Made by a program: the position numbers and the translations under genes. The notes beneath the pieces are model-generated. The model was given only the letters and a program-made list of their open reading frames with translations. It did no database searches and was not told where the DNA came from. Source: an uncultured virus (IMG/VR IMGVR_UViG_3300028805_000054) (taxonomy: Duplodnaviria; Heunggongvirae; Uroviricota; Caudoviricetes). From it: DNA of 31,615 bases. This document shows positions 897-29,835 of this stretch, piece by piece; the stretch's first letter is position 1; each line of letters opens with the position of its first letter. Location of the stretch: IMG/VR virus record IMGVR_UViG_3300028805_000054. One strand, 5' to 3'.

Positions 897-932
897 GAGG
901 GTTTAATTCCTCAGTTAGCTTTTTAAGTTAAC
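897..932 (+). repeat. 36-bp inverted repeat, left copy (partner 5881-5916); contains core AGGGTTTAATTCC
   Basis: gagggtttaattcctcagttagctttttaagttaac is the exact reverse complement of 5881-5916. Confidence 0.95.
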
Positions 933-999
933 AAGTCCAAAATAAGTAAATTTCATATTTACGTTAAGTTTGGCAAAAATATGAAAATTTTGTTATGAT

Positions 1000-3669
1000 A
1001 TGAGTGAAATAAGAAACTTAACTAGAAATGGAGAAACCTTTTATCCATTGACTTGTACCGAAGGCTTAGTTAATAGAGATGGTGATATTGTAGGTGAAAT
1101 CAATGATATTTTTGATGTCTCCGAATATAATGCCTATGGTACTCCTCCTACTCTAGCTAAATATACATCTTTGTCCTTAGCTTTAGCTGCAGTACCTTCT
1201 AGTAAGCAAAAAGGAGGTATGACTATTAGATATGTACAGACTTCTGACAATAAGTATGTACAGTATAGGTTGATGTCAAACTCTTGGAGTAGCAATGTGG
1301 GAGATTGGCAAGGAGTTGATGATGTACCAGAAAAAGGTAGTAAAAACCTGATTGAAAGTGGTGCGGTGTTTGATGCTTTAACTACAATTATGTCTGATAC
1401 GAAAGCTCAGTATGATCAGTATTCTCCTTATATCAGAAATGTCTATTTGATTCCTATTTCTAATTCTGGTGTAACCCTATTAAAAACATTAGAGAACAAT
1501 AATACTAAAATTAAAATCACATATCTTGGCATAAATAGTTCCGCAATCTCTTCAACATCCGTATTTGGACTTCAATTTAAAATAGGTGATGATAACATCG
1601 CATTTTATATTAAAAATGTTCCAAATTTTTCTGAATCAAGAATTTTTGAACTTGGCAATGTTGGCTATCATAGTGGAGGACTTGAAACAATGTTTAAATG
1701 TTTTGTTGAATTTAATGAAATGGCAGATTTTACTCCAATGGTTTTATATAATCTGCCTTCTACCTATATTAAGGTATTAAGTTCAACACAATTATCATTT
1801 CTTGCATCTTACTACAAATTATTAAAAATAGATAATAGTCCATCTTCATATTCAAGTAATGTTGTTGCAGGAAATGGAATATTTGGAATGACAAATACAA
1901 TATTTGCTCCTAATAAAGAACAGGAAGATAAATATTCACCTTATATAAAGAACATATTTTTAGTTCCTACTACTTCTGTAAAATTTAATTCTTTAAAACA
2001 AGAAAATGTAAATTTACGTTATCTAGGAGTAAGAAATACAAGTATTGGCGGTGAGTCTTCAATATTTGGTATATTAGTTGGAGATGCTGATGTCGTTGAT
2101 TGTTGTGGATTTTATACAACTGATGTACCAGATTTATCTTTAGGAACTATTGTAGAATTAAAAAATAAAAGTTCAAATACTAATAATTGGGGCGATAATT
2201 TAAGATGTTTTGTAGAATTTAATAAAAATATTGACTTTACTACAACTACTGGAAATATTTCAATTGGTTTGCCATCAGTTATAGTTAAATGTTTTGATAA
2301 TACTTTACACTCTTTAGTACAGACTTTATATAATCTTTTTGATTTTAAAATAGATGATACTCTTGTTCCATATTCAAACAATACTATTCAAAATAGTACT
2401 GTATATAATGCTATGTCAACAATCATTCCGCCAAATAAAGCTCAAGAGGATAAGTACTCTCCTTATATAAAAAATGTATTTATTATTCCTACTACATCTG
2501 CTAAATTTGATTATCTTAAAACATTAAAAAATAATAATACTTATATAAGATTAACTTATCTTGGTGTAAGAGAAAGAGCGTTAGGTGGTCCTTCATCAAT
2601 ATTTGGAATACAATTATTTTTAGGAGTAGATAATGTAGCTAGTTTTTATACAACTGAAATACCAAACTTATCTTTGGGAACGATAGTAGAATTACCAAAG
2701 ACTGCTAATGCTACAGGAGAAATTAGTTCTGGTTATAGGGTTTTTGTAGAATTTAATCCTATGATAGATTTTAATACTCCGTCGGAATTAATTATTATTA
2801 GTCTTCCAGTAATTTATGTAAACAATTATAATAATACTATCTATTCTTTATTTTCAAATATAGCAAATTTAAATCAGTTAAAATTACGTTATATTGTTGT
2901 AGATAAAAATGGTAGTGGTGACTTCACAACATTGACTGCTGCTACTGATTATGCAAGTGATGGTGCAATCATAAAAGTTATGCCTGGAATCTATGACAAT
3001 GAAGTAATTGTAGGCGGTAAGACGAAAACATTATTCATTATCGGAGATGATCGTGATAAATGCGTAATTAAAAACTCTTATGGTAATTATGCAAACGCTG
3101 TCATTCATATTGCATCTGGATTACTGAGAAACCTTACTGTTATTCAGGAGGCAACTTCTGCATCTGATGTTGGTGCTTATGCAGTTCATGCAGATATGAA
3201 TCCTATGTATAATAGCACGCTTAGGATTGAGAATTGTACGCTAAGAAACCACCTTAGAAATGTAGGTGCATTAGGTGCCGGTCTTAGAGGTGGTGGTGTT
3301 CTTACAATACAGAATAGTACTCTTGAGAATGTAACAGGTGGACGGGCATTATATTGTCACGACAACAATGGACCTGAATATAATGGTTTACAAATACTAA
3401 GGATAGTAGATTCAATTATAAAAACTGTACCAACAGATAATTTGTATGCTATTACCATACAAGGTCAAGGAAAAAATGGTGAAAGAACTTTCGAAGATAG
3501 TCAGTATTATCTTGAATTTGTACGCAACAGAATTGTTGGTGGTGCAAATTTTGTCAACTGGTATCCTGATGATGTAACCATTACTGATGACGATTTCCAA
3601 GGGGTTATGAATCTCAGACTTTCATCAGTATCTTGGGGTAACAGTGATTCAGTGTTCAATGCTGAATAA
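1000..3669 (+). CDS. Receptor-binding/tailspike-like paralog A: conserved N-terminus, three ~170-aa repeats, C-terminal pectinesterase/pectin-lyase-like beta-helix
   Basis: N-terminus MSEIRNLTRNGETFYPL...KGGMTIRYVQTSDNKYVQY is shared with three other ORFs. Repeats (QxDxYSPYIxN) start near 1381, 1891 and 2416. The segment YIVVDKNGSGDFTTLTAA...IKVMPGIY resembles a beta-helix cap. Confidence 0.75.
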   Translation: MSEIRNLTRNGETFYPLTCTEGLVNRDGDIVGEINDIFDVSEYNAYGTPPTLAKYTSLSLALAAVPSSKQKGGMTIRYVQTSDNKYVQYRLMSNSWSSNVGDWQGVDDVPEKGSKNLIESGAVFDALTTIMSDTKAQYDQYSPYIRNVYLIPISNSGVTLLKTLENNNTKIKITYLGINSSAISSTSVFGLQFKIGDDNIAFYIKNVPNFSESRIFELGNVGYHSGGLETMFKCFVEFNEMADFTPMVLYNLPSTYIKVLSSTQLSFLASYYKLLKIDNSPSSYSSNVVAGNGIFGMTNTIFAPNKEQEDKYSPYIKNIFLVPTTSVKFNSLKQENVNLRYLGVRNTSIGGESSIFGILVGDADVVDCCGFYTTDVPDLSLGTIVELKNKSSNTNNWGDNLRCFVEFNKNIDFTTTTGNISIGLPSVIVKCFDNTLHSLVQTLYNLFDFKIDDTLVPYSNNTIQNSTVYNAMSTIIPPNKAQEDKYSPYIKNVFIIPTTSAKFDYLKTLKNNNTYIRLTYLGVRERALGGPSSIFGIQLFLGVDNVASFYTTEIPNLSLGTIVELPKTANATGEISSGYRVFVEFNPMIDFNTPSELIIISLPVIYVNNYNNTIYSLFSNIANLNQLKLRYIVVDKNGSGDFTTLTAATDYASDGAIIKVMPGIYDNEVIVGGKTKTLFIIGDDRDKCVIKNSYGNYANAVIHIASGLLRNLTVIQEATSASDVGAYAVHADMNPMYNSTLRIENCTLRNHLRNVGALGAGLRGGGVLTIQNSTLENVTGGRALYCHDNNGPEYNGLQILRIVDSIIKTVPTDNLYAITIQGQGKNGERTFEDSQYYLEFVRNRIVGGANFVNWYPDDVTITDDDFQGVMNLRLSSVSWGNSDSVFNAE

Positions 3670-3678
3670 TTCACAGAG

Positions 3679-3789
3679 TTATTGTAATAACTCAATACAA
3701 AACTTTTGAGAATTAATAAAGGGAAAGGATAGATTTTAATTTCTATCCTTTCCTTTTTATTTTATGTACCTACTTATTACAATAACTAT
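3679..3789. terminator. 111-bp bidirectional terminator element, copy 1 (direct repeat of 9442-9552)
   Basis: Hairpin aaagggaaaggataga-ttttaatt-tctatcctttccttttt between convergent genes; 104/111 identical to copy 2; bracketed by a 14-bp inverted repeat at 3677-3690/3774-3787. Confidence 0.85.
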
Positions 3790-3802
3790 TTTCAATATAT
3801 AA

Positions 3803-5851
3803 TCAATATTTCGCAATTAAACCTGCCGTTAATTGGTCAGCCATTTTGACATGTCCTGCGGCATTTGGATGCAAGCCCTCATCATTGAAGAATGTACTTG
3901 TTGTTGCGAAGTTAATGCCACATGCTGGCATCTCAATGATATTCGCTCCTAATGCAAGTGCAATTTCCCTTATTTTATTATTGTATGAGTTTATTGATAC
4001 GCCTGCCGAATTTATGCCGGGATAATGTAAATCAACATCTTGGTCTACACTTATCATCAATGGAGAACAGTAAATTTTTGCGTTTGGATACATTGACATA
4101 CATTTCCATAGCAATAATGCGTAGGCAGTAGAGAAATTGTCAATTTGTCCATCCTCCGGGATTTCTGAATCTTGAGTCCAATTTCCAATAGGTACAAGAT
4201 TCCTCCAATCGTTTATACCCATATAAATCCAGATAATATCAGGAGCAAAACCGTCTCTTGACAAATCCGTGACTCTTTTAGTAGAACATCCGGGATTTCC
4301 GTCTGTTGCCAAAGAATTACCAGAAACATTTGAACCGCTCCAAGAGCAATTGTTAAAGTTCAATCCTAATCTGTCACATACGATTTTCCAATAGCATTGG
4401 TCAACATTTGTGACCCCTGCACCTTGTGATGGATAATATGGAACATATCCAGAAGGTATGTATCCACTGTAAGTTGAAATTGAATCACCGACTATTGCAA
4501 TATTCTTTCCCTCCAGTTTTTTTACAGAACTATACAAACCTTCATTTTTTAAAAATCCGGCAGAATATATTTCTACTTCAAATCCTGAGACATCATTCCA
4601 ATATGTACTTGGCTTATACCACACTTTCGCCGAATAAGGAGAACTTCCTCCAAAATATGCAATAGCAGTATCGTTATTTCCATCAACAAATCCAATCCAT
4701 TCGTTACTAGCAAGAATAAACGGACTGGAGAAACAAAGTGTAACAAGCCCAGTCTTATTTACTACAAATTGTTCTATGACAGATTTTGAAAAATCATTTG
4801 TCCTGATTCCAGTTCCTTTTAAGACGGTAAAAGTACCGGGTGATTTTATATTTACACAAACTCCTGTGATTAAACGTCCACGAATCTTTTGTTGGTATTT
4901 TTCCTCTAACCAATATCCGTTGACGCCAGAAATCAGAGAAACTGGAGTGGTTCCTGTGAAGTACGAAGACACCAACTTGACTGAATCATCTGTAACTTTC
5001 TTCTCGAAACCATCCAATGTTTCATATATACCATCTAAGTCCTTTTCTGATAAAAAGACAGAGTGTGAGTAAAATTCAACACAAAGATGTCCTCCTTCTT
5101 GCCATGAACTTGATGGTTTGTATTTAAACCATTGCTCATAAAGCAAATTTGAACTGCCAACAAGATATTTGAATATAGCCGTGTCGTTTGCACCATCACA
5201 TATACCAACCCATTCATTGTCATTCAGATAGAGAGGAGTTGAAAACTCTAAATAAACAACACCAGTTTTGGTTATATTGAATTGTTCTACTGTTGATTTA
5301 GAAAAATCGTCTGTTCCAATTCCAGTTCCTTTTAAGACAGATAAAGTTCCAATCGTTGATATTTCAATAGCGATTCCTGTTATTTTCTTATTCCTTAGTC
5401 TTTTCTGAATGGATTCAACAAACCAAAAGCCATTAACTCCGGCAGATAAACTTGAATTGGTATTACCACCAAAATTTGTTGCAAGTAATTTAATATTGTT
5501 TTTACTTGTTATCTCTTCCTCTTTAGCATTAACCTGTTTGTTCCAATTCTCTGTATTAATATTAAAACTATTAGAAGTAAGAGTATACTGCACATAAGTG
5601 TTGTCAGAAGTCTGTACATAACGGATAGTCATACCACCTTTCTGCTTACTGGTAGGTACTGCAGCTAAAGCTAAGGACAAAGATGCATATTTAGCCAGAA
5701 CAGGAGGAGTACCAGAAGCATTATATTCAGAGATATCGAATATGTCATTAACTAGCCCTAAAGGCTCACCATCTCTATTTAGGACAGCATCTGAACATGT
5801 TAATGGATAGAAGGTTTCCCCATTTCTAGTTAAGTTTCTTATTTCTGCCAT
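3803..5851 (-). CDS. Receptor-binding/tailspike-like paralog B: conserved N-terminus, two ~165-aa repeats, C-terminal SGNH/GDSL hydrolase
   Basis: Shared N-terminus; duplicated GVNG(F/Y)W...VLKGTGIxTxDFSKS...NEWxG...DTAI; SGNH blocks GDSIS, GIND and GLHP. Confidence 0.8.
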   Translation of the reverse strand: MAEIRNLTRNGETFYPLTCSDAVLNRDGEPLGLVNDIFDISEYNASGTPPVLAKYASLSLALAAVPTSKQKGGMTIRYVQTSDNTYVQYTLTSNSFNINTENWNKQVNAKEEEITSKNNIKLLATNFGGNTNSSLSAGVNGFWFVESIQKRLRNKKITGIAIEISTIGTLSVLKGTGIGTDDFSKSTVEQFNITKTGVVYLEFSTPLYLNDNEWVGICDGANDTAIFKYLVGSSNLLYEQWFKYKPSSSWQEGGHLCVEFYSHSVFLSEKDLDGIYETLDGFEKKVTDDSVKLVSSYFTGTTPVSLISGVNGYWLEEKYQQKIRGRLITGVCVNIKSPGTFTVLKGTGIRTNDFSKSVIEQFVVNKTGLVTLCFSSPFILASNEWIGFVDGNNDTAIAYFGGSSPYSAKVWYKPSTYWNDVSGFEVEIYSAGFLKNEGLYSSVKKLEGKNIAIVGDSISTYSGYIPSGYVPYYPSQGAGVTNVDQCYWKIVCDRLGLNFNNCSWSGSNVSGNSLATDGNPGCSTKRVTDLSRDGFAPDIIWIYMGINDWRNLVPIGNWTQDSEIPEDGQIDNFSTAYALLLWKCMSMYPNAKIYCSPLMISVDQDVDLHYPGINSAGVSINSYNNKIREIALALGANIIEMPACGINFATTSTFFNDEGLHPNAAGHVKMADQLTAGLIAKY

Positions 5852-5880
5852 AACCTTTTATTTTATATAGAACTAGACTC

Positions 5881-5916
5881 GTTAACTTAAAAAGCTAACT
5901 GAGGAATTAAACCCTC
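5881..5916 (-). repeat. 36-bp inverted repeat, right copy (partner 897-932)
   Basis: Exact reverse complement of 897-932; 13-bp core at 5903-5915. Confidence 0.95.
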
Positions 5917-5928
5917 TTTTATTTCCCT

Positions 5929-6484
5929 CAGTGTGTTTTGTCTAAGGTGTGATTTTAGTGAAGGAGGAGAAATTGAAAAGGTTAATAACAAAAATTTATC
6001 ATTTCTCCTTCTATTTCTTACACCTTGATTTCTTCACACACTGTTAACTACGCTTTGATAATTAACACAATGATTTAAACAGTGGGATAGATTAAAGTTG
6101 GAGAAAAACTTGCTTGTCTCGAGGTTGATTCCGAGTAAGCAAGGAAATATCAACTTTGAGGACTGAATTGTGTGAAAGAAAGCATGAAATGATCCAAATC
6201 TTCACTTTTCAGTTAAATTGACCCACTAAAACAGCAAAAAAATGTCACAATCCCTTATATAAGTACGGAATGTGTGTGGAGGTTGTTTGCATACTTTGTT
6301 GGTCCGAAAGCTAAGGTCAGTGTCGTTAGCAAAATCAAAAGTGTGGTCCTCTCTGCTAAAACCAAAAAGTCATGACAGCAGAAGAGGAGAGTAAGTTTAG
6401 GATTAGGGAAATTGGATCTCGGAAACTTGCTCTGATGATAATGGTGGTGTGAATATAAAATTCATAGAGTGCCTTCCGAGATCC
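5929..6484. other. Hairpin-rich non-coding spacer (candidate structured RNA or regulatory leader)
   Basis: No ORF of 60 aa or more. Nested stems at 5929-36/6036-43, 5944-50/6020-26, 5965-73/6001-09; 6081-86/6222-27, 6094-6100/6151-57, 6109-15/6137-43; and 6414-24/6474-84. Confidence 0.55.
6253..6263 (+). promoter_or_regulatory. CCTTATAT promoter-like motif facing paralog C
   Basis: Same motif as precedes several transcription units in this window; 6254-6263 (CTTATATAAG) is palindromic. Confidence 0.5.
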
Positions 6485-6625
6485 TTTGAGCCCTTTTAGT
6501 TTATCTTTATATAAACGAAAAAAAAACGACATATGAAGAAGAAAATTATGCCGTTAAAGGGTGAATATGGAAATTAAAGTCTGGATCTCCCGCAGTTACT
6601 AAAATAAAAGTGGGGAGAAAAAACC

Positions 6626-6708
6626 AGGGTTTAATTCCAATGGTCATGATTTTAGAGATTATGACTTTATGTTAAAAATTTTGATTATGATATGAGTGAA
6701 ATAAGAAA
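6626..6708 (+). repeat. 83-bp inverted repeat, left copy (partner 11972-12054)
   Basis: Exact reverse complement of 11972-12054; starts with core AGGGTTTAATTCC and spans the leader and start codon of paralog C. Confidence 0.95.
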
Positions 6709-8746
6709 CTTAACTAGAAACGGCGAAACTTTCTATCCACTATGTAGCTCTGAAGGATTGGTAAATAGAGATGGTAATGTGGTGGGTGAGATTAATGACA
6801 TCTTTGATATCAGTGAGTATAATTCTAATACTAGTACTACACCTCCTACTCTAGCTACATATGCTTCCTTAGATTTAGCTCTTGCTGCTATTCCAACGAC
6901 CAAAAGAAAAGGTGGAATGACTATCAGATATGTACAGAGTTCTGACAATGAGTATGTTCAATATAGGTTGATGTCAGAAACATTTAATACTACTGTGGTT
7001 AACTGGCAAGGAGTGGATGGTGAGCTTGTAGCTGGTAGTAGAAATCTTGTTGAAAGTGGTGCTGTATTTAAGGTTGACAAGAAAATAGAAGCCCTCATCA
7101 AGAATGACCCAGATAATACAGATCTTGATATATCCGATGAAGATGGGTATGTTATATCCAGATTTGTTGGTGGGCATGTAAAGACAAAGAATTTTGATTC
7201 ATCAAAGGCCGTGTCAGTTGATGAGTTTGAAGAGGCGGCAAGTAAAACACCAAAAATATCAGACAGTATTCCTGAAGCAGACCTCGATGTAAAGGACGAG
7301 AATGGTAACGTGGTGATGATATTGCAGAACGGGCATGTAAAGACAAAGAATTTTGATTCATCAAAAATCTCCTTCCCCAAGAATAGAACACTGAGCAATG
7401 GCGTATTAGGTTTCAACAGATGTCCAAATATATGGAGTGAGGATTATGACTATCTTCTTGTGTTTGTCTATGGTCAGTCCTATACTATTGCAACTGATGG
7501 AAGGTATAAGCTGACGAATGACTTGGATGACAATATATATTGTTTGGGTAATCACTTCTATGTTCAGGATGGTAACAGCCTTGTTAAGCTGAAGAACACG
7601 TCAGAAGCAAATCAGGAGTATTGCCCTGACACCGCAATGGATATAATAGCCAAACTATGTAGGATGTATTCCTTCAAGACTCCTAAATTCATTATAGGAA
7701 ACGTTGGTAGAGGAAGCAGAACTTGCCTTGAACTGATGAAGGAATCAAGCATTCAGTCTCTTTTGACACCAGCGGAATGGGAAACATTCTACAACCTTTC
7801 CACCTACGACAAAAAAGATCCAGATGAAGGACTAGATGTGACTGATGGCTGGTATAGAAAGGTAACGGCATATCTTGACAACCTGAACAGGTGGGCTACG
7901 GAAAATAACAAGAAGATCTTGTGTCCTTTCATTATTTACCTACAGGGAGAGTCAGATACCCACTCCCAGTTGGCTGACCATGGAAGCATCTCTTGCTCAG
8001 ACGGAAACTATTCTGTGTATAAGGAAAGATTGAATGTGATGCTGTCAGACTTGAGGTCGGATATTATGGCGGCAACTGGTCAGACTGATGAACCCGCAGT
8101 TTTCTTAGACAATATCGGAAATAGTATATTCAAGGATACATTAAGCGGTATATCCCAAGTGCAGACTGATTTGCCAAGAGAAGTCGATGGTGTATATACT
8201 TGTGGCCCATACTATGCATATCCTTCCTATGGTCCCCATCCGACACCAGATGGAAGAAGATGGATAGCAGAGTGTATTGGAAGGCTCTTCTATAAGGTAT
8301 TCTTAGGCTGTGAAAGAAGTGATATGTATGTCGATTCATATAAAATAGATGGTAATAGTGTTATTCTGGATGTAGTGAGTCCGACACCACCTTTGGTAAT
8401 TGACAATTACACGTCAGAAAATCAGCCTAACTGCGGGTTTAAGGCATTTGACGGCAATATGACTGAGATTGCGATAGATTCAGTTTCTGTGTCCTGCTCT
8501 TCTGTTATTATCAACTTTGGCTCTCTGCCTGTCTCTGATTTCTATATCTCATACGGAAGCTCTGGGTATGGCAACATTAGGGATTCAGAGAGATGGAACT
8601 CAAAATATAAATACACCAGCAATGCTTTGGGTGACGAGGCACAGATAGCCCATTATCCAAAGGATAAGGATGGTAATGCCATAATCGGTGAATACTATCC
8701 GATGTGGAACTGGCTGCCTTTTGGATTTGTCTATATAGAGTTGTAA
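6692..8746 (+). CDS. Receptor-binding/tailspike-like paralog C: conserved N-terminus, two short repeats, SASA-type (sialate O-acetylesterase-like) SGNH domain
   Basis: Shared N-terminus; DLDxxDExGxV...GHVKTKNFDSSK occurs twice; GQS, QGESD and GPHP motifs. Confidence 0.75.
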   Translation: MSEIRNLTRNGETFYPLCSSEGLVNRDGNVVGEINDIFDISEYNSNTSTTPPTLATYASLDLALAAIPTTKRKGGMTIRYVQSSDNEYVQYRLMSETFNTTVVNWQGVDGELVAGSRNLVESGAVFKVDKKIEALIKNDPDNTDLDISDEDGYVISRFVGGHVKTKNFDSSKAVSVDEFEEAASKTPKISDSIPEADLDVKDENGNVVMILQNGHVKTKNFDSSKISFPKNRTLSNGVLGFNRCPNIWSEDYDYLLVFVYGQSYTIATDGRYKLTNDLDDNIYCLGNHFYVQDGNSLVKLKNTSEANQEYCPDTAMDIIAKLCRMYSFKTPKFIIGNVGRGSRTCLELMKESSIQSLLTPAEWETFYNLSTYDKKDPDEGLDVTDGWYRKVTAYLDNLNRWATENNKKILCPFIIYLQGESDTHSQLADHGSISCSDGNYSVYKERLNVMLSDLRSDIMAATGQTDEPAVFLDNIGNSIFKDTLSGISQVQTDLPREVDGVYTCGPYYAYPSYGPHPTPDGRRWIAECIGRLFYKVFLGCERSDMYVDSYKIDGNSVILDVVSPTPPLVIDNYTSENQPNCGFKAFDGNMTEIAIDSVSVSCSSVIINFGSLPVSDFYISYGSSGYGNIRDSERWNSKYKYTSNALGDEAQIAHYPKDKDGNAIIGEYYPMWNWLPFGFVYIEL
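7172..7365 (+). repeat. 35-bp perfect direct repeat within paralog C (7172-7206 and 7331-7365)
   Basis: gggcatgtaaagacaaagaattttgattcatcaaa occurs twice. Confidence 0.9.
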
Positions 8747-8776
8747 TTAATAGATATAATTTAAAAATAAATCATT

Positions 8777-9433
8777 ATGGGAAAAAGTTTAATTATCAAG
8801 GGGGCGGATTTTAGCAATTCTGCCTTGGCAAGAGTAGGTTACGTCTATTCTGAGACAGTAAGTCTTGTAAATAATCAGGATGTAACTATAAATTGTGATG
8901 TTGTGGCTGGCAAGACATACGCCATATACACTGATTCCAGACGTTATAGATTGGATCTTAGCATATCACAGGGAAATTCTGTTTTGGCTACATTCAAGAC
9001 TTTTGATAATTCAAATGTCAAAGCAGACACATCTGGTACGATATTCACTGCAACAAGTGACGGAACAATTCAAGTCAAAGGAAACGGAAATGCCTCATGT
9101 GATTTTGTAATTAAGGAAGCATTCTTTGTTGCAGAAAAAGCTGCCGTAGTTCCAAGTTCAGCCGAAACAATAGCAGAACTTAAGGCTGGCTTCAAGTATT
9201 TCATAAACATACCTGAAATACAGTTAAAATCAGGAGTATCACCCATTCAGGCGTTTGCATTTATATCTATATATAATAGCACATTGTATTCTGTTATTCA
9301 GGATTCTACCAATTCTGGTGGATATTGTGTAAATGCTTCTGTAGATGGATTGTTGAAGGAAAATGGAGGTATAAATGTCGATCAGTGTGATAGCTATACC
9401 GTCAAGATATATGCGGTAGAAAAAGAATTCTAA
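8777..9433 (+). CDS. Hypothetical protein D, probable partner of paralog C
   Basis: 218-aa ORF beginning MGKSLIIKGADFS, 30 bp downstream of paralog C and inside the same cassette. Function is inferred from position only. Confidence 0.65.
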   Translation: MGKSLIIKGADFSNSALARVGYVYSETVSLVNNQDVTINCDVVAGKTYAIYTDSRRYRLDLSISQGNSVLATFKTFDNSNVKADTSGTIFTATSDGTIQVKGNGNASCDFVIKEAFFVAEKAAVVPSSAETIAELKAGFKYFINIPEIQLKSGVSPIQAFAFISIYNSTLYSVIQDSTNSGGYCVNASVDGLLKENGGINVDQCDSYTVKIYAVEKEF

Positions 9434-9441
9434 GAATGTAT

Positions 9442-9552
9442 TTATTGTAATAACTCAATACAAAACTTTTGAGAATTAATAAAGGGAAAGGATAGAGGTT
9501 AAAATCTATCCAATCCCTTTTATTTTATGTACCTACTTATTACAATAACTAT
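9442..9552. terminator. 111-bp bidirectional terminator element, copy 2
   Basis: Direct repeat of 3679-3789; hairpin ggataga-ggttaaaa-tctatcc; TTATTGTAATAA inverted repeats at 9442-9453/9537-9548. Confidence 0.85.
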
Positions 9553-9558
9553 GTGCTA

Positions 9559-11988
9559 TTAACGAATTAATAATAGTTCATTTGTAAATACATCACCCAT
9601 TATTTCTTGTCCGTAATCGCTTGGATGATTATCAACCTTCTCAATCTGGATTATAGATTTAGGAGTTGTGTTAATTTTACCCCAAAGGTCTATAATAGGT
9701 ATATTCCACTCTTCTTTCAGTAATCCAAATGCAGTCTTACCTTCTGTATATCTAAACTCACTATCAAGTAAGAATACCATCCTTGCTTTCGGGTTTAATT
9801 GATACATCTTGTCCATAAGGAATAGAAGAGCACCAAGGAATGTTGTGCGATGGCCTCTGAAATATCCAGGGTCTGAAGCATCATAATTTGGGTCTTCCTC
9901 TGATGGAGCGTCGTTGTATTTCCAATTATCCTTGTCAAAGGCATTCCAGTCTGTTAATGCAAAATTGTTATTATTAGGAGCAACTGCGAAAACCCACAAA
10001 TCAACATCAGCATTTGCAGCCGAGAAAACATTCTCAAATGTCTTATAGTATGAATTTACAGAACCTCCTGGAATCCATGTCGCTCCTGACGTTGGTACTG
10101 GTGTGCCGTCAATAGTAATATCTGTTTTGCCTGCTGCTCTTGCTGTTGCATAATCTGCGATAGACAAAGATGACGAACCATAAGACATGGGACTGAAAAC
10201 ACCATCCATCATTCTTCCATGTATAGCCAATCCTGGGACACAGGCAGGAACCACCTCTGCACCAAGATTATCAGCAGCAGTTTTGCCATAAGCATTATGA
10301 GCACCTGAACCAAAGGCAACTGATGTTCCTATAATACATATTTTCTTACCTCTCCACTGATTATTAATTGATGGAATGCTATTTTCAAAACTATGTAATT
10401 GAGTATAGGAATAGAAATATATGGCATTTTTTGATGGCATTTCATAAGTTATGCTAATATATTTTGCTCCAGCAGGCACTCTTAAATACGAATTTTGTCC
10501 ACTTCCCGTTGAGAAAGTAGAAATTGCCTTATTATCTGATAATGAGGCAACAAAGCCACCACCATTGACACCTACCGAAACAGTTCTTAAATCGAAATGT
10601 TCTACTCCTTTGCAGTTGAAATACAATGTGCCATAATCATTACCAGAAGAATCTACCTTTGTTTTTGTTCCTTTGTCCCATAGATGGTTGGGGTCTTCTG
10701 ACACAACATTGTCATAGGTGACAAGATTGAGTTTCAGATTTGATGTGTTAAGTTGAAGTTCATCAAACTGCTTCTTTAAATTTGCATTTATATATCCAAA
10801 CAATCCGACTCCGTTTCCATTAATCTTATACAGAGTTGGTGTTTTGGATATATTACCAGAGAACACATAATCACCTTCTTCTAAATAGAACAATGGTGAA
10901 CAGTTATGTGATATGTCATCATTTGCAGATTCCTCACTTACAATCGGTTTGTAACTATCAGTACTTAACTTGACAGAAACTAAGGCTATTTCATTGTTAT
11001 ACCCCCCAAGGTTGTCAAAGAAGTAATAACCACTATTCATGTGAATAGGCTCTGTATAACCATAGAAAGGTGCAACGCGTCCAGATAGAACACCCGTTTT
11101 CATTACATATTTCCCAGTATTAGCGAATGTAACAGCAACACTTGTCAGGTCAGACTCTTTTATTCCAAAGAATCTTAATGCGTTATATGCACCACCACTT
11201 GTTATCAGTTTGTCACTGTTTTCGATAGGCTGGTTTACGATATTTTGATAAATCCTTGATACGAACCCAGCAAGATTTTTTATCTGGTTGACCTTATACA
11301 ATTTAGGATTGTGGCCAATATACCCGCTGAAAACATAAGTTCCATCTTTAACATAGAATATACAAGATGTATCGTATGCTATTGCTACTGTCGTTGGGTT
11401 CGTATCAATTATCTGTGGCACATAACTACTACCAACTTTCTTTGAAACAACAGCAATCTCGCCCATGAATCCATAAATAGACTCAAAGAAATAGACCCCT
11501 TCTGTTAATTGGACATCTTCAGAATAAGAGAACATATTCGAGCCATTTCTTTTTGTTCCATTTTTATCAATATAGTGACCTGTGTTATTGCTGAAATTCA
11601 ATGTGACTTCTTCCAGATTAGAGTCACTGATACCAATCAGTCGAACATCATTCTCTTCTTGCCAATTTGTAACATCGAGGAATGGGTTCGGGTTTCCTGT
11701 TGTAGCAATACCAGTATATCTATATTGTACATACTTATTGTCAGAACTCTGTACATATCTGATTGTCATTCCTCCCTTTTGTTTGGCCTGAGGAACTGCG
11801 GCAAGAGCTAAAGACAGAGTTGAATATTTAGCCAAAGTAGGAGGAGTACCAGAGGCATTGTATTCGGAAATATCAAAAATATCATTTATAACGCCGACAA
11901 CACTTCCATCCCTATTTACAAGACCTTCTGTACAAGCTAGGGGATAAAAAGTTTCGCCGTTTCTAGTTAAATTTCTTATTTCACTCAT
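9559..11988 (-). CDS. Receptor-binding/tailspike-like paralog E: conserved N-terminus, two ~150-aa repeats, C-terminal SGNH-like hydrolase
   Basis: Shared N-terminus; duplicated NTGxY...EIAxVS...FYxxxGxYVFSGxI...PxLYK; GTSVA, PNN and DNHP blocks. Confidence 0.75.
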   Translation of the reverse strand: MSEIRNLTRNGETFYPLACTEGLVNRDGSVVGVINDIFDISEYNASGTPPTLAKYSTLSLALAAVPQAKQKGGMTIRYVQSSDNKYVQYRYTGIATTGNPNPFLDVTNWQEENDVRLIGISDSNLEEVTLNFSNNTGHYIDKNGTKRNGSNMFSYSEDVQLTEGVYFFESIYGFMGEIAVVSKKVGSSYVPQIIDTNPTTVAIAYDTSCIFYVKDGTYVFSGYIGHNPKLYKVNQIKNLAGFVSRIYQNIVNQPIENSDKLITSGGAYNALRFFGIKESDLTSVAVTFANTGKYVMKTGVLSGRVAPFYGYTEPIHMNSGYYFFDNLGGYNNEIALVSVKLSTDSYKPIVSEESANDDISHNCSPLFYLEEGDYVFSGNISKTPTLYKINGNGVGLFGYINANLKKQFDELQLNTSNLKLNLVTYDNVVSEDPNHLWDKGTKTKVDSSGNDYGTLYFNCKGVEHFDLRTVSVGVNGGGFVASLSDNKAISTFSTGSGQNSYLRVPAGAKYISITYEMPSKNAIYFYSYTQLHSFENSIPSINNQWRGKKICIIGTSVAFGSGAHNAYGKTAADNLGAEVVPACVPGLAIHGRMMDGVFSPMSYGSSSLSIADYATARAAGKTDITIDGTPVPTSGATWIPGGSVNSYYKTFENVFSAANADVDLWVFAVAPNNNNFALTDWNAFDKDNWKYNDAPSEEDPNYDASDPGYFRGHRTTFLGALLFLMDKMYQLNPKARMVFLLDSEFRYTEGKTAFGLLKEEWNIPIIDLWGKINTTPKSIIQIEKVDNHPSDYGQEIMGDVFTNELLLIR

Positions 11989-12054
11989 ATCATAATCAAA
12001 ATTTTTAACATAAAGTCATAATCTCTAAAATCATGACCATTGGAATTAAACCCT
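11972..12054 (-). repeat. 83-bp inverted repeat, right copy (partner 6626-6708)
   Basis: Exact reverse complement of 6626-6708; 13-bp core at 12042-12054. Confidence 0.95.
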
Positions 12055-12091
12055 CCTTTATTTCCCCGGTCATTATTTCCTTATATTTGTA
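12052..12091 (+). promoter_or_regulatory. 40-bp promoter-containing repeat (inverted partner 17061-17100)
   Basis: 39/40 identical to the reverse complement of 17061-17100; contains CCTTATATTTG (TAnnTTTG) just upstream of the ATG at 12095. Confidence 0.75.
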
Positions 12092-12704: not shown

Positions 12705-13532
12705 ATGAAAAATTTACTGGAGTTTTATGAAGAATCAGTAAAGTTAGGACCTGATATACCAAACCATATTGAGATTGTGGAAGATTACTGCAATAAGGTG
12801 AAGAAATTTGAATCTATGCCAATCTTAAAGAACATCTACTCACGAACTCTTCCAGATATATCAAATTATTGTGGCTCAAGGTTAGATTATTTTGAGTCGA
12901 TAAATGGGAATAAGGTGGTGATGTGTAAGGATTATATTGGCATCATTGACCTCTGGTTTCCCTCTGAGAGACCACTATTCGACTTAACCTCTCCCATCTT
13001 ATCTGGTTGGTTAGTATCAGAAATAATATGTGCAGGAGGATTGACTGGAATAGAAGAAGTTATACAGTACCCCTCCCTCTTAGATCAAACTTTCGAAAAC
13101 CTAAAGAAAACCTTAATCGGAACTACGGTATGGGGATTTTGGTTAGGAGATCAGAGAAGAGGAACCAGGAAGAGAGGAATAAAGATCAGGGAGTTGGAGA
13201 TCAAGGAGGTTAATGATCCAAAGTATTATGGTATTTATCCTCTAGAAACTGTCCTTTATGATAAGCGAGAGAGGGTAGATCTGAGGTTTGAGATTAATGG
13301 AGATTATAAGGGTTGGAATTTTTATCTCTCCAAGGAATTATTAAAGACTAAGTTGGAGGAGTTAGAGATTTTATGGACCCGGGGATATGATGATCGAGTT
13401 AGGGGTTTTGATTTTGAGATTAAGAAGAAAACGAAAGAGCTTGAGAACCTTAAAGATGAGAGAAACAAATATGAAAATGGAATCGAAGAATTTAGAAAAA
13501 AGATACACGAGAAATTATGGAAAAGCTTTTAG
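12705..13532 (+). CDS. Hypothetical protein with C-terminal coiled coil
   Basis: 275-aa ORF overlapping the next gene; charged helical C-terminus. Confidence 0.75.
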   Translation: MKNLLEFYEESVKLGPDIPNHIEIVEDYCNKVKKFESMPILKNIYSRTLPDISNYCGSRLDYFESINGNKVVMCKDYIGIIDLWFPSERPLFDLTSPILSGWLVSEIICAGGLTGIEEVIQYPSLLDQTFENLKKTLIGTTVWGFWLGDQRRGTRKRGIKIRELEIKEVNDPKYYGIYPLETVLYDKRERVDLRFEINGDYKGWNFYLSKELLKTKLEELEILWTRGYDDRVRGFDFEIKKKTKELENLKDERNKYENGIEEFRKKIHEKLWKSF

Positions 13533-14596
13533 ATTTTGTTGATATTGCTTTAATCCCATCTGAAAAGAATGGTGGGGTTGGGAAGTATGATTTTGGAGTG
13601 GCTGATCTTGTAGATAAAACCAATAGTCTCCCAATCTTCACTTCGCCGATGGATTCGATAGTGAGTGAGCAAAATTGGAAGGTATGGGCAGATCAAGGTA
13701 TAAGGCCAATTCTTCCACGTACTACTCCCCTAGAAATCCGGCTTGAAGGTTGTCAATACATTTTCGCCGCATTCTCCTTGAAAGAAGTAGCGGAAAATTT
13801 CTTATCACGAAGACCATCAGGGAGCGGACCTTTCAGAGTTTGTATAGATCCTGGAAATGGTCATGATACTAAGTTATTCGAGATTGGAAAGGCCTTAAAA
13901 GCAGCATACGGACCTGGCATAAATTTGATGGGTGGTAATATAGGAAATCCAAAAACCTACTCTGAATATTGTAAGACTGGTTTTGATTATGTTCGGGTAG
14001 GTATGACAGGAGGTTCTTTGGTAAATCATTCAGCTCATGGTTTTGCTTATCCTCAGGCTTCTCTCTTAATTGATACATTGGGAATAAAAAATACATCTCT
14101 TATGGGCTTGAAGCATACAAAGATAGTGTCAGATGGTGGTATTACAGGTCCAGTCGATATTCTGAAGGCTATAGCACTTGGAGCAGATTATGTCATGGTA
14201 GGTCGTGAATTTGCTAAACTTGTGGAGGCAGCTGGACAGATCATGAGAAAGAATGAAGATGGTGTGTTAGAGCCAATTGAGAAGAGTGAGATGGCTGCAA
14301 ACCTGACTGAAGAAGAGTTGAGAATGTCTGGACTTGTTAGATTATATGCTGGAAATACGACCTACGAGATGCAAGCTAAGCGAGGAGGTTTTGAGGATAT
14401 TCATGATTGGCTTGGAGCTCCTGGTATGAAAAGAAATATGTCAGATGCACGAGTCGACACAGTTAAGGTAGTGAGGACTCTGAAAACTTGGATGGAGGAT
14501 ATGTATCAAACTCTTAACTACGGCTTCACTATGTCTGGAGCTAAAGATTGGGAGACGTTCAAATCTAATGTGCGTTATGTCAGAGTCCAAATCTAA
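13517..14596 (+). CDS. GMP reductase/IMPDH-family TIM-barrel protein, divergent active-site loop
   Basis: PIFTSPMDSIV, CIDPGNGH, GGNI, DYVRVGMTGGS, YPQ, IVSDGGI...DILKAIALGADYVMVG. Confidence 0.85.
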   Translation: MEKLLDFVDIALIPSEKNGGVGKYDFGVADLVDKTNSLPIFTSPMDSIVSEQNWKVWADQGIRPILPRTTPLEIRLEGCQYIFAAFSLKEVAENFLSRRPSGSGPFRVCIDPGNGHDTKLFEIGKALKAAYGPGINLMGGNIGNPKTYSEYCKTGFDYVRVGMTGGSLVNHSAHGFAYPQASLLIDTLGIKNTSLMGLKHTKIVSDGGITGPVDILKAIALGADYVMVGREFAKLVEAAGQIMRKNEDGVLEPIEKSEMAANLTEEELRMSGLVRLYAGNTTYEMQAKRGGFEDIHDWLGAPGMKRNMSDARVDTVKVVRTLKTWMEDMYQTLNYGFTMSGAKDWETFKSNVRYVRVQI

Positions 14597-17060: not shown

Positions 17061-17100
17061 TACAAATATAAGGAAATAATGACTGGGGAAATAAAGGAGG
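17061..17100 (-). promoter_or_regulatory. 40-bp promoter-containing repeat (inverted partner 12052-12091)
   Basis: 39/40 match to its partner; contains a TAnnTTTG box. Confidence 0.75.
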
Positions 17101-20271: not shown

Positions 20272-20790
20272 ATGAGAATAACAGATAAGAGAGTATATTT
20301 TTGGGCTGGACCGTTAGGAAATTGGAGCCGAGTGAAGGGAGGTATATTTGTTCCGGCCGAATTAAGTTTTACTAATCAGGTATTCAAACTCCCTACCTCC
20401 GAGCACGTCTTTATGTACCTTAAGGCTAGATTCTTTGGTGATGAGGAAATGATTATAAGAATTATTGCTACATCCGACCCAAAAGAAGCAAAGAAGTGGG
20501 GAAGGCAGGTAAAAGGATTTGATGAATTTCTATGGGTAGGAATTAGAGAGGAAACTATGTGGACTGCCCTAACCTTAAGATACCAATATGACGAAAGATT
20601 TAGAGATTACCTGGCGAAGGAAGAATTTGTAAGTAAGCATTTTGTAGAGGCCAATCCATATGATAAAGTTTGGAGTTGTGGTTACTTAGAAGATGACCCG
20701 AGAATAGATTTGCCGGAGGAGACATGGCCAGGATTGAATTTGTTAGGGAAGTTGTTAGATAAGTTAAGAGATCAAAATGTTAAACCGTAA
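20272..20790 (+). CDS. NADAR-family (YbiA-like) protein
   Basis: TSEHVFMYLKARFFGD, DPKEAKKWGRQV, EANPYDKVW, GLNLLGKLL. Confidence 0.9.
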   Translation: MRITDKRVYFWAGPLGNWSRVKGGIFVPAELSFTNQVFKLPTSEHVFMYLKARFFGDEEMIIRIIATSDPKEAKKWGRQVKGFDEFLWVGIREETMWTALTLRYQYDERFRDYLAKEEFVSKHFVEANPYDKVWSCGYLEDDPRIDLPEETWPGLNLLGKLLDKLRDQNVKP

Positions 20791-28976: not shown

Positions 28977-29200
28977 GATCTTAATAATTCAGGTTTACAA
29001 TCAAAGTTTTCACACTCCTTTGCCTTCTTTGAATAATCCTGGTAGTTTATATCTTCGCCTGTTACTTTACATTTTCCAGCAAACCAATGAAGACCATAAC
29101 CACAAAACTTAGTACAGTAATGACAAGATTTCGCTTCCTCATAGTCTTTTAGTATCTCTCCATTCGTTCCGTGGCCTATACAGATCTTCACTTTATCCAA
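28973..29200 (-). CDS. Small Cys-rich hypothetical protein
   Basis: CxxC...GxC...CxxF pattern. Confidence 0.7.
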   Translation of the reverse strand: MDKVKICIGHGTNGEILKDYEEAKSCHYCTKFCGYGLHWFAGKCKVTGEDINYQDYSKKAKECENFDCKPELLRS

Positions 29201-29835
29201 TACTTAACACACTCTGCCAGAACTTTACCATCAACTCTCCCTAATTCTTTCTTCAGTTTTCCTATCGTCGGTCCCATTATTTTAGCCTCAATACCTTCTG
29301 GATATAGCTCCCTCAGTTTGGCCATAATCTCATCTTTACCAACTTCTTTAGGGAGCCAGCCAAGAAGAATATCAAACTCAAATTTCTCTTTCTTAAACTC
29401 TTCTGAATTTTTCTCCAAAAGGGTTAAATTTTCTTTATGTGATTTAGCCAACTTTTCGAAAATTCCTTCCTGTATATCGGCCGGAATAAGCTCAATTCGT
29501 TCATCCATATTTTGATCAATTACTCTAACTTCTACTTCAACACCGTCTTTTTTAGCTTTTTCAATATGTGAGGTTAGGGTTCCGGTTTTCAGGAGTTGGT
29601 CAGTCATTTCATTATTCTTCACTACCTCCTCCATGAAAAGTGACTTAATGATCTTGAAGAATCCAGCTTTCCATTCCAACTCCTTAAGTTTTTGGTCATC
29701 CTCATCTAATATTACATCGATTAAAATTCCACGAGCCCTCATTTCAGATTGTTTCTTACGCTCAAATTCCTTTTTGATCTTTAAGGGTTTAATTTCTTCC
29801 ATCACCCTCTTCAGTTCTTCATTTACGTTTATCAT
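29188..29835 (-). CDS. GatB/YqeY-domain protein
   Basis: C-terminus EFDILLGWLPK...MGPTIGKLKKELGRVDGKVLAECVK matches the YqeY pattern. Confidence 0.7.
   Translation of the reverse strand: MINVNEELKRVMEEIKPLKIKKEFERKKQSEMRARGILIDVILDEDDQKLKELEWKAGFFKIIKSLFMEEVVKNNEMTDQLLKTGTLTSHIEKAKKDGVEVEVRVIDQNMDERIELIPADIQEGIFEKLAKSHKENLTLLEKNSEEFKKEKFEFDILLGWLPKEVGKDEIMAKLRELYPEGIEAKIMGPTIGKLKKELGRVDGKVLAECVKYWIK

Follow-up and report, generated by a model that had tools for sequence, protein, structure and literature searches.

A probable four-slot bank of virion-fibre genes bracketed by tyrosine-recombinase-type sites in a rumen-type phage

The 31,615-nucleotide stretch of viral DNA analysed here (IMG/VR record IMGVR_UViG_3300028805_000054; hereafter the window) comes from a large, rumen-type phage with four alternative virion-fibre genes, A, B, C and E, which share an N-terminal head and differ in their bodies. 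We found that each gene body is bracketed by two 30-bp tyrosine-recombinase-type sites, the 5′ site in frame at the head/body joint and the 3′ site inverted at the cassette end. Judged from these sites and their occurrence in other loci, the array is probably a bank of swappable host-recognition parts. We give an even chance to the fuller reading, in which this four-slot bank descends from a tyrosine-recombinase shufflon, has one expression slot, switches whole genes near a shared 13-bp core and imports bodies in trans. The proteins of the window map to a 155,615-bp contig. The host is presumably a member of the Bacteroidales; two of four genome-collection loci are labelled Prevotellaceae or Bacteroidaceae, and the sequencing runs containing the window are recorded mostly as sheep gut.

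The genes of the array and the two hairpins found between them in a hairpin scan are the following:

1000..3669, plus strand: gene A, 889 aa; shared head, three ~170-aa internal repeats, pectinesterase-like C-terminal part
3718..3757, both strands: two-way terminator-like hairpin between A and B
3803..5851, minus strand: gene B, 682 aa; shared head, GDSL/SGNH esterase C-terminus
6692..8746, plus strand: gene C, 684 aa, in the predicted expression slot; shared head, acetylesterase-like C-terminus
8777..9433, plus strand: gene D, 218 aa; accessory gene within the C cassette
9481..9520, both strands: two-way terminator-like hairpin between D and E
9559..11988, minus strand: gene E, 809 aa; shared head, weak match to an SGNH-bearing tail-fibre family

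Open reading frames (ORFs) and alignment bear out an earlier, sequence-only reading of this DNA, which had described four full-length genes (A+, B-, C+, E-) with a common N-terminus and unrelated C-termini. The N-termini align over ~90-105 residues (A and C to ~125) and the remainders are unrelated. That reading also had the same 111-bp central terminator in both pairs; the central blocks are in fact identical at 104 of 111 bp. The C-terminal part of A matches PF01095 (E 3e-6, slightly short of the family cut-off), B matches PF13472 (E 1e-13) and the tail fiber protein family PHROG 5240 (E 2e-12), C matches the tail fiber protein family PHROG 4201 (E 3e-41) and, weakly, SASA, and E matches PHROG 5240 (E 3e-5). 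Relatives of the body of B, at 32-44% identity, are confined to its esterase part, and the body of E has no match in viral_contigs. Taken from family matches only, the fibre bodies may bind receptors. The three internal repeats of A (1480-2780) are spaced by 507 and 534 nt, and gene C has an exact 35-bp direct repeat (7172-7206 and 7331-7365) encoding a GHVKTKNFDSSK motif that recurs in the fibre bodies of L001 and L054.

Of 335 candidates, 57 proved related to the head; many of these have esterase, phosphoesterase, deacetylase or peptidase domains listed. Its structure model has no fold match in the PDB and only weak matches in BFVD, to crAss-like and podoviral fibre/SGNH proteins; in Atlas it led to clusters without names and to fibre-type leads only. 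Because the head homologue in a temperate-type locus (L009) follows the portal, protease, major head and collagen-like genes, "virion fibre" is a safer label than "tail fibre".

Each 30-bp site consists of 11-bp imperfect inverted arms around an 8-bp spacer, whose outer bases vary and leave a 6-bp core. This core is TGACAA at the 5′ (joint) sites and TTACAA at the 3′ (end) sites, a one-base difference. The joint motif encodes VQ(T/S)SDNKYVQ. The sites in the window are as follows:

1233..1262, plus strand: 5′ site of A; consensus, core TGACAA, codons for VQTSDNKYVQ
3670..3699, minus strand: 3′ site of A; inverted, core TTACAA, abuts the stop codon
3765..3794, plus strand: 3′ site of B
5589..5618, minus strand: 5′ site of B; inner arm off-consensus
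6931..6960, plus strand: 5′ site of C; first base of inner arm off-consensus
9433..9462, minus strand: 3′ site closing the C+D cassette
9528..9557, plus strand: 3′ site of E
11726..11755, minus strand: 5′ site of E; consensus

A site matrix finds these eight sites and zero elsewhere in the window, 0 matches in 20 shuffles and 0 in 478,411 bp of upstream flanks; as six of the 20 sites with which it was seeded are from the window, the window scores are inflated. All four 3′ sites score well, and the 5′ sites of A and E are consensus. The B and C joint sites carry codons found in none of the 82 joint sites anchored by protein (see below). The sequence-only reading had overlooked the eight sites, together with the shared 13-mer described below and gene D.

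We compared loci L001-L131 and the window, which together hold 112 distinct joint sites. For 66 cassettes the body is complete and at least 1,200 nt follow the stop codon; an inverted 3′ site lies within 1 kb of the stop in 53 of them (the window's four included) and within 30 nt in 32. A long gap between stop and 3′ site is filled by one accessory gene such as D. Among the 13 cassettes without an inverted end site, two have a further direct site and ten have none.

Codon usage at the joint was assessed on sites anchored by the protein motif only, of which 82 of 99 are in register and 17 have insertions or have lost the motif. The top codon holds a share of 93-100% at eight site codons compared with 42-68% at conserved codons just upstream. 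The codons are frozen inside the site, and therefore it is the DNA, not the protein, that is conserved. The 3′ core is TTACAA in 67 of 69 cassettes and the 5′ core TGACAA in 69 of 69, the latter having been chosen for that G; at unselected head-bearing sites TGACAA is found in 105 of 107 and TTACAA in 0. A head fused to an end-type core was accordingly seen in 0/107, i.e. inversion of a single body was not seen, an outcome that selection would also hide.

Among relatives by site, the pairs L017/L021, L069/L113, L009/L017 and L009/L068 have backbones that are alike outside and bodies that are unrelated inside, with the change at both sites. For example, the members of L017/L021 and of L069/L113 hardly differ before the joint site or after the end site, and show background similarity between the two. 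A bracket of two sites with different cores, the feature of heterospecific-site exchange, is present.

This comparative evidence argues strongly for site-bounded exchange of fibre bodies (layer 1), presumably by enzyme action. In this layer a 337-aa tyrosine recombinase, present in many rumen phages but not beside the window array, would join like site with like. Replacement of a body would take two crossovers, with a prophage or a co-infecting phage as partner, while 5′x5′ or 3′x3′ inversions would reshuffle the slots. Headless cassettes at L013 6600-6629 and L052 522-551 start at hybrid sites whose left arm is of the end-site type, which suggests tandem cassette addition through a joint-site x end-site event.

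Some of the data weigh against purely site-bounded exchange. The 155 bodies fall into 144 clusters, and no near-identical pair is found in unrelated site-bearing backbones (best 73% and 60%). Moreover, P0058 and P0034 (L067) have a 788-aa body that is 95% identical under two unrelated heads, and their junction lies at a PTxGS linker, downstream of the site, in a lineage without sites. Because this 95%-identical body is joined outside the site, bodies move by ordinary mosaicism too.

The candidate enzyme is best seen in L054, where a 337-aa protein of the integrase family stands at the end of the cassette array. Its residues R189, K212, H294, R297, H320 and Y329, which we take to be the catalytic set, are invariant in 12 aligned homologues, and all 12 match PHROG integrases. 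The structure model (predicted local distance difference test score, pLDDT, 61) has fold matches to Tn1549 Int, lambda Int, Cre and XerH; by sequence the protein has no match in the PDB. The L054 enzyme thus has the features of a tyrosine recombinase, with the R-K-H-R-H-Y set and an Xer-like size. In a scan starting from the recombinase, which used 33 of 39 loci (six begin inside the gene, and several are duplicates of each other or of earlier loci), a 5′ site is present in 17 of 17 loci with at least 5 kb upstream and a 3′ site within 600 nt in 22 of 27. The gene is truncated and reversed in L014 (13214-13552) and split over two frames in L035 (12839-13842), beside intact cassettes in both, a pattern consistent with repeated enzyme loss.

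In the window, no integrase or invertase/resolvase family was found among 29 ORFs scanned by family, and the L054 recombinase has no tblastn match (E<=0.01). The earlier remark that no recombinase is adjacent thus holds for the window, but it describes a lineage state only, the recombinase adjoining the array in L054. The enzyme family has 357 homologue clusters; none of the 120 listed is traceable to the phage of the window, a weak point against supply of the enzyme by this phage.

L054 (from a 173.5-kb contig) also bears on the origin of the array. An IMPDH-like gene is syntenic between window and L054, and the two copies are 86% identical over the 151 residues compared. The sequence-only reading had proposed a comparison of gene order in related phages, and L054 indeed agrees with the window in its two convergent pairs, central block and promoter. 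It has one headed gene, three headless cassettes that start exactly at the joint site, and the adjacent recombinase. Whole-gene cassettes, as claimed earlier, are therefore a property of the four window genes and not of L054. By its layout, L054 is a one-head shufflon that would work like Rin, a system described below. Of the features of Rin/Min-type systems, in-frame joint sites between constant and variable parts in inverted orientations are present in the window (1233+, 5618-, 6931+, 11755-; two off-consensus), while one constant 5′ part with silent headless cassettes and an invertase gene adjoining the cassettes are both absent from it and present in L054.

Other relatives differ in the number and state of their heads. 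In L073 a single gene stands at slot C, with the same promoter and leader. Slot C of L052 is occupied by a whole gene, another of its slots is headless, and in slot B a frameshifted head precedes an intact 863-codon body. All four genes of the window are whole, with eight sites and four intact heads; the heads have ratios of nonsynonymous to synonymous divergence (dN/dS) of 0.08-0.24 over six pairs, with dS of 0.55-1.6, and part of this constraint may predate the array. L053 and L067 (P0023, P0034, P0024) appear to belong to one phage, a 141,894-bp relative which has headed genes and has kept the convergent pairs and terminators but lost both types of 30-bp site. We would order these states as a series from one gene, through one head with silent cassettes and decaying heads, to four whole genes with sites and finally whole genes without sites. 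No relatives were found among GenBank phages, and nothing was found in viral_contigs with family-specific DNA patterns and the IMPDH gene.

Next, we consider the sequences upstream of the four genes, which bear on expression:

898..910, plus strand: 13-bp core upstream of A, within the 36-bp inverted-repeat arm 897-932
5903..5915, minus strand: 13-bp core upstream of B, within the 36-bp arm 5881-5916
6220..6263, plus strand: promoter-like block ending in CCTTATAT
6280..6691, plus strand: slot-C leader; conserved foldable stretch (z -2.7) and terminal stem with the 13-bp core as 3′ arm
6626..6638, plus strand: 13-bp core upstream of C, opening the 83-bp arm 6626-6708
12042..12054, minus strand: 13-bp core upstream of E, closing the 83-bp arm 11972-12054; joined to an outward-facing promoter-like element

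The inverted repeats of 36 bp (897-932/5881-5916) and 83 bp (6626-6708/11972-12054) are both exact, as the sequence-only reading had stated. Within them, the exact 13-mer AGGGTTTAATTCC stands upstream of all four genes (898+, 5915-, 6626+, 12054-), four copies compared with 0.0014 expected in the window under a mononucleotide model, and the flanks of the copies are unalignable.

The promoter-like block is conserved upstream of the slot-C gene in L052, L073 and L054, with 91% identity between window and L054 over 56 nt. Position 6253 had been singled out earlier as the sole promoter-like motif pointing inward. It is the only intergenic copy of CCTTATAT facing into the array, but three further copies lie inside gene A. 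No intergenic CCTTATAT is directed at A or E, and both abut outward-facing promoter-like elements. One such element, of 40 bp, has near-exact inverted copies at 12052-12091 and 17061-17100 ending in TATATTTG, which we take to fit the Bacteroidetes consensus TAnnTTTG; the purine-rich end of the 12052-12091 copy is the left flank of the core at gene E. A scan for sigma-70 promoters gave 76 matches compared with 57 +/- 7 in shuffles and was not used.

The foldable stretch of the leader (6280-6466) is common to L052 and L073 and matches no Rfam family. One RNA-library contig starts at 6280, where it has a short loose end; this hints weakly at a transcript start. In three phages the slot-C stem has the 13-mer as its 3′ arm. 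Slots without the stem partner nonetheless preserve the 13-mer unchanged and with a common left boundary, and L053 keeps it exactly with the same left boundary as in the window. Another reading that we considered would make the 13-mer one half of a recombinase palindrome (9-6-9); its spacers are not the same from copy to copy, and at slot C a stem explains it at least as well.

Because the single gene of L073 stands there behind the same promoter, slot C is the predicted ancestral expression slot. The conserved promoter and leader are found at this slot alone among the four, which is why we propose that only the slot-C gene would be expressed and the phage would make one fibre type at a time (layer 2). 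With complete heads in every slot and drift at the joint sites of B and C, switching would now be of whole genes. The crossover would take place at or beside the shared 13-bp core, or within the perfect 36- and 83-bp arms, through phage homologous recombination or a site-specific enzyme. Such a crossover would rebuild the terminal stem of the leader for any gene entering slot C. The heads are whole and under purifying selection, so that each headed gene is probably expressed whole, in place or after moving whole to slot C.

The earlier proposal of inversions at the repeats fits this scheme in part: inversions of A/B, of C/E and of the spacer would be possible at the 13-bp core, but the best-evidenced sites are the 30-bp sites at joints and stop codons, not the 36- and 83-bp repeats. 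Likewise, the idea that inversions bring any gene to one expression site agrees with a switch-like layout as in L054 and with slot C as ancestral slot, but no inversion joint was seen in contigs.

The arrangement was followed in assembled contigs of four runs from three samples, with a word depth of ~12 in the probable source sample. Several results speak against whole-gene switching from a single slot. No inversion junction among the window sites was found in the contigs of the four runs, contigs being prone to drop rare variants; contigs of the probable source sample run unbroken across the B and C joint sites and both spacer cores. An RNA-library contig from another study repeats the spacer-C join, and all four bodies lie under contig cover in that library, in which strand and level are not readable and contig depth was not used to rank the genes. 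In addition, CTTATATAAG at 6254-6263 is palindromic and could drive B too, and the leader stem is drawn from three sequences with zero two-sided compensatory changes. Since rare variants are lost in contigs, this result decides neither for nor against switching; selection on a phage that grows on a single host would, besides, favour one state.

Contig breaks occur only at static repeats or shared site sequence. We did not accept breaks at the joint sites of A and E as evidence of inversion, as other phages in the sample share those 31-mers, and the start of L053 exactly at the core was not counted as a branch, since a static repeat fits too. In run X5, body B is present in five exact pieces at a depth of ~2 with little else covered, a hint of a mobile body only.

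The somewhat unlikely but most serious alternative is a frozen array, in which the recombinase was lost, every slot gained a head, and the four fibres are co-assembled or mixed on the virion, leaving the 30-bp sites as relics or as landing pads for body replacement in trans. It would account for the one arrangement seen in two studies, the purifying selection on four intact heads, the two drifting joint sites and the 141,894-bp relative with headed genes and no sites, and B could be served by the palindromic promoter core. Clusters of several spikes that are static and have conserved N-termini are also known (PMC11414711). The missing intergenic CCTTATAT toward A and E, both of which abut outward-facing elements, is however difficult to fit with such an array. 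Nor would a frozen array explain two further features: slots A, B and E, like another lineage in which the left boundary is the same, retain the exact 13-mer that makes up half of the slot-C stem, and a perfect 83-bp arm adjoins heads with dS >1. Because the 13-mer is kept exactly in slots without the stem partner, we favour whole-gene switching over the frozen array.

We regard a body-level shufflon as in L054 and L052 as distinctly improbable. Under this reading a recombinase, provided in trans or by another part of the genome, would act at the 5′ sites to join bodies to the head in slot C, and the extra heads would be recent passengers. The consensus 5′ sites of A and E, the well-scoring 3′ sites, the abundance of the recombinase family (357 clusters) and the decay in L052 of a headed slot-B gene to a silent cassette are all in its favour. 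Nevertheless, the sites at B and at C, the expression slot itself, carry the codons seen in 0/82 protein-anchored sites, the heads are old (dS 0.55-1.6) yet unbroken, and the contigs show no joint at the B or C site. Very improbable, finally, is that the 30-bp motifs are homology islands or protein-binding signals and that bodies move by homologous or illegitimate recombination. Motifs before and after receptor-binding domains of coliphages have been read as hotspots of homologous recombination (PMC10408124), and the junction of one 95% body transfer lies off the site. Arguing the other way are the two fixed cores and arm-spacer-arm build of the motifs, the frozen site codons, the headless cassettes that start exactly at the site and the tight linkage to one recombinase family.

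Whole-gene switching from slot C can be compared with systems already known. In the Campylobacter fetus sap locus, whole-gene homologues with conserved 5′ ends share one promoter, and RecA-dependent inversion occurs between the 5′ regions. This locus resembles layer 2, except that the shared upstream homology is here only 13-83 bp and that switching is here a predicted behaviour. Gin and Cin are serine invertases with 26-bp sites and a single invertible segment. Their features are absent: the 29 window ORFs include no resolvase/invertase family, and the sites are of the arm-core-arm tyrosine type. In laboratory recombinase-mediated cassette exchange, heterospecific lox or FRT cores are used so that like joins like and a cassette is replaced. 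Compared with this, the system here would be natural and phage-borne, its activity is predicted, and a one-base core difference may be leaky.

Close in design is the Rin shufflon of Bifidobacterium prophages, in which an armless tyrosine recombinase lies beside a receptor-binding gene with silent variable C-termini, one crossover site lying inside the gene and one directly after its 3′ end (PMC6109161). L054 would work like Rin, whereas the window's four genes are whole and no enzyme adjoins them; because headless cassettes and adjacent enzyme are both absent, we do not file the window as a Rin member. The rix sites are one 11-bp sequence, in direct repeat around the expressed part, compared with 30-bp arm-core-arm sites with two cores, inverted, here, and the variable parts are 95-100 aa long (PMC6109161) compared with bodies of 400-1,375 aa. 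Unlike in Rin as described there, the same 30-bp sites also surround single cassettes in unrelated phages.

A BV01-like Phocaeicola phage has a tail-fibre shufflon in a 1.7-kb locus with 10-bp directional motifs, where only the distal end changes (PMC13596623). It is likewise a fibre gene of a Bacteroidales phage diversified by a recombinase-flanked multi-cassette inversion locus, but it is described with neither a two-core bracket nor whole-gene slots. Together with the programmed tail-fibre inversions reported in prophages (PMC9881135), it indicates that Bacteroidales and other prophages use inversions. The multi-tailspike clusters of Ackermannviridae (PMC11414711) and the motif-bounded receptor-binding domains of lytic coliphages (PMC10408124) are read as co-expressed and exchanged by homologous recombination. 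They too have several spike genes with conserved N-termini, variable enzymatic C-termini and DNA motifs flanking the variable domain; here, in contrast, the genes lie on alternating strands, and a tyrosine recombinase is associated with the motifs. The accessible text of PMC10408124 has 0 occurrences of "recombinase" and "site-specific", and that of PMC8042965 has nothing on a phage shufflon. A literature search at title and abstract level, with most subscription journals outside it, found no account of a natural two-core exchange system or of this phage family.

We tentatively suggest, with less confidence than for the switchable bank itself, a wider picture in which unrelated families of rumen Bacteroidales phages use a common two-core site standard to trade entire enzymatic fibre bodies, phages without a recombinase borrowing the enzyme from co-infecting ones. 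The four-slot bank would belong to one large-phage family, and the window lineage would have shifted to whole-gene inversion at the 13-bp leader element, both importing and toggling host specificities. If true, unrelated phages would be exchanging fibre bodies of 400-1,375 aa in a site-specific way, which would amount to programmed horizontal transfer of host range, beyond shufflons that act within a genome. This touches on the wider question of how phages cope with Bacteroidales capsules that change by phase variation. The system is tractable, with one 337-aa enzyme and two 30-bp sites, and the family series offers a view of a shufflon either freezing into a multi-fibre phage or changing its mechanism.

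L001 (6017-12636) and L005 represent a different, probably jumbo, phage group with MSVNKILVNN heads (P0042, P0046, P0055; 345,957-bp contig). This group has several headed fibre genes with the same junction domain, the sites being intact in some and absent in others. The N-terminus of gene D is that of a gene in one L054 cassette. Outside the array, the window also encodes IMPDH/GMP reductase-like (13517-14596), NADAR (20272-20790) and YqeY-like (29188-29835) genes.

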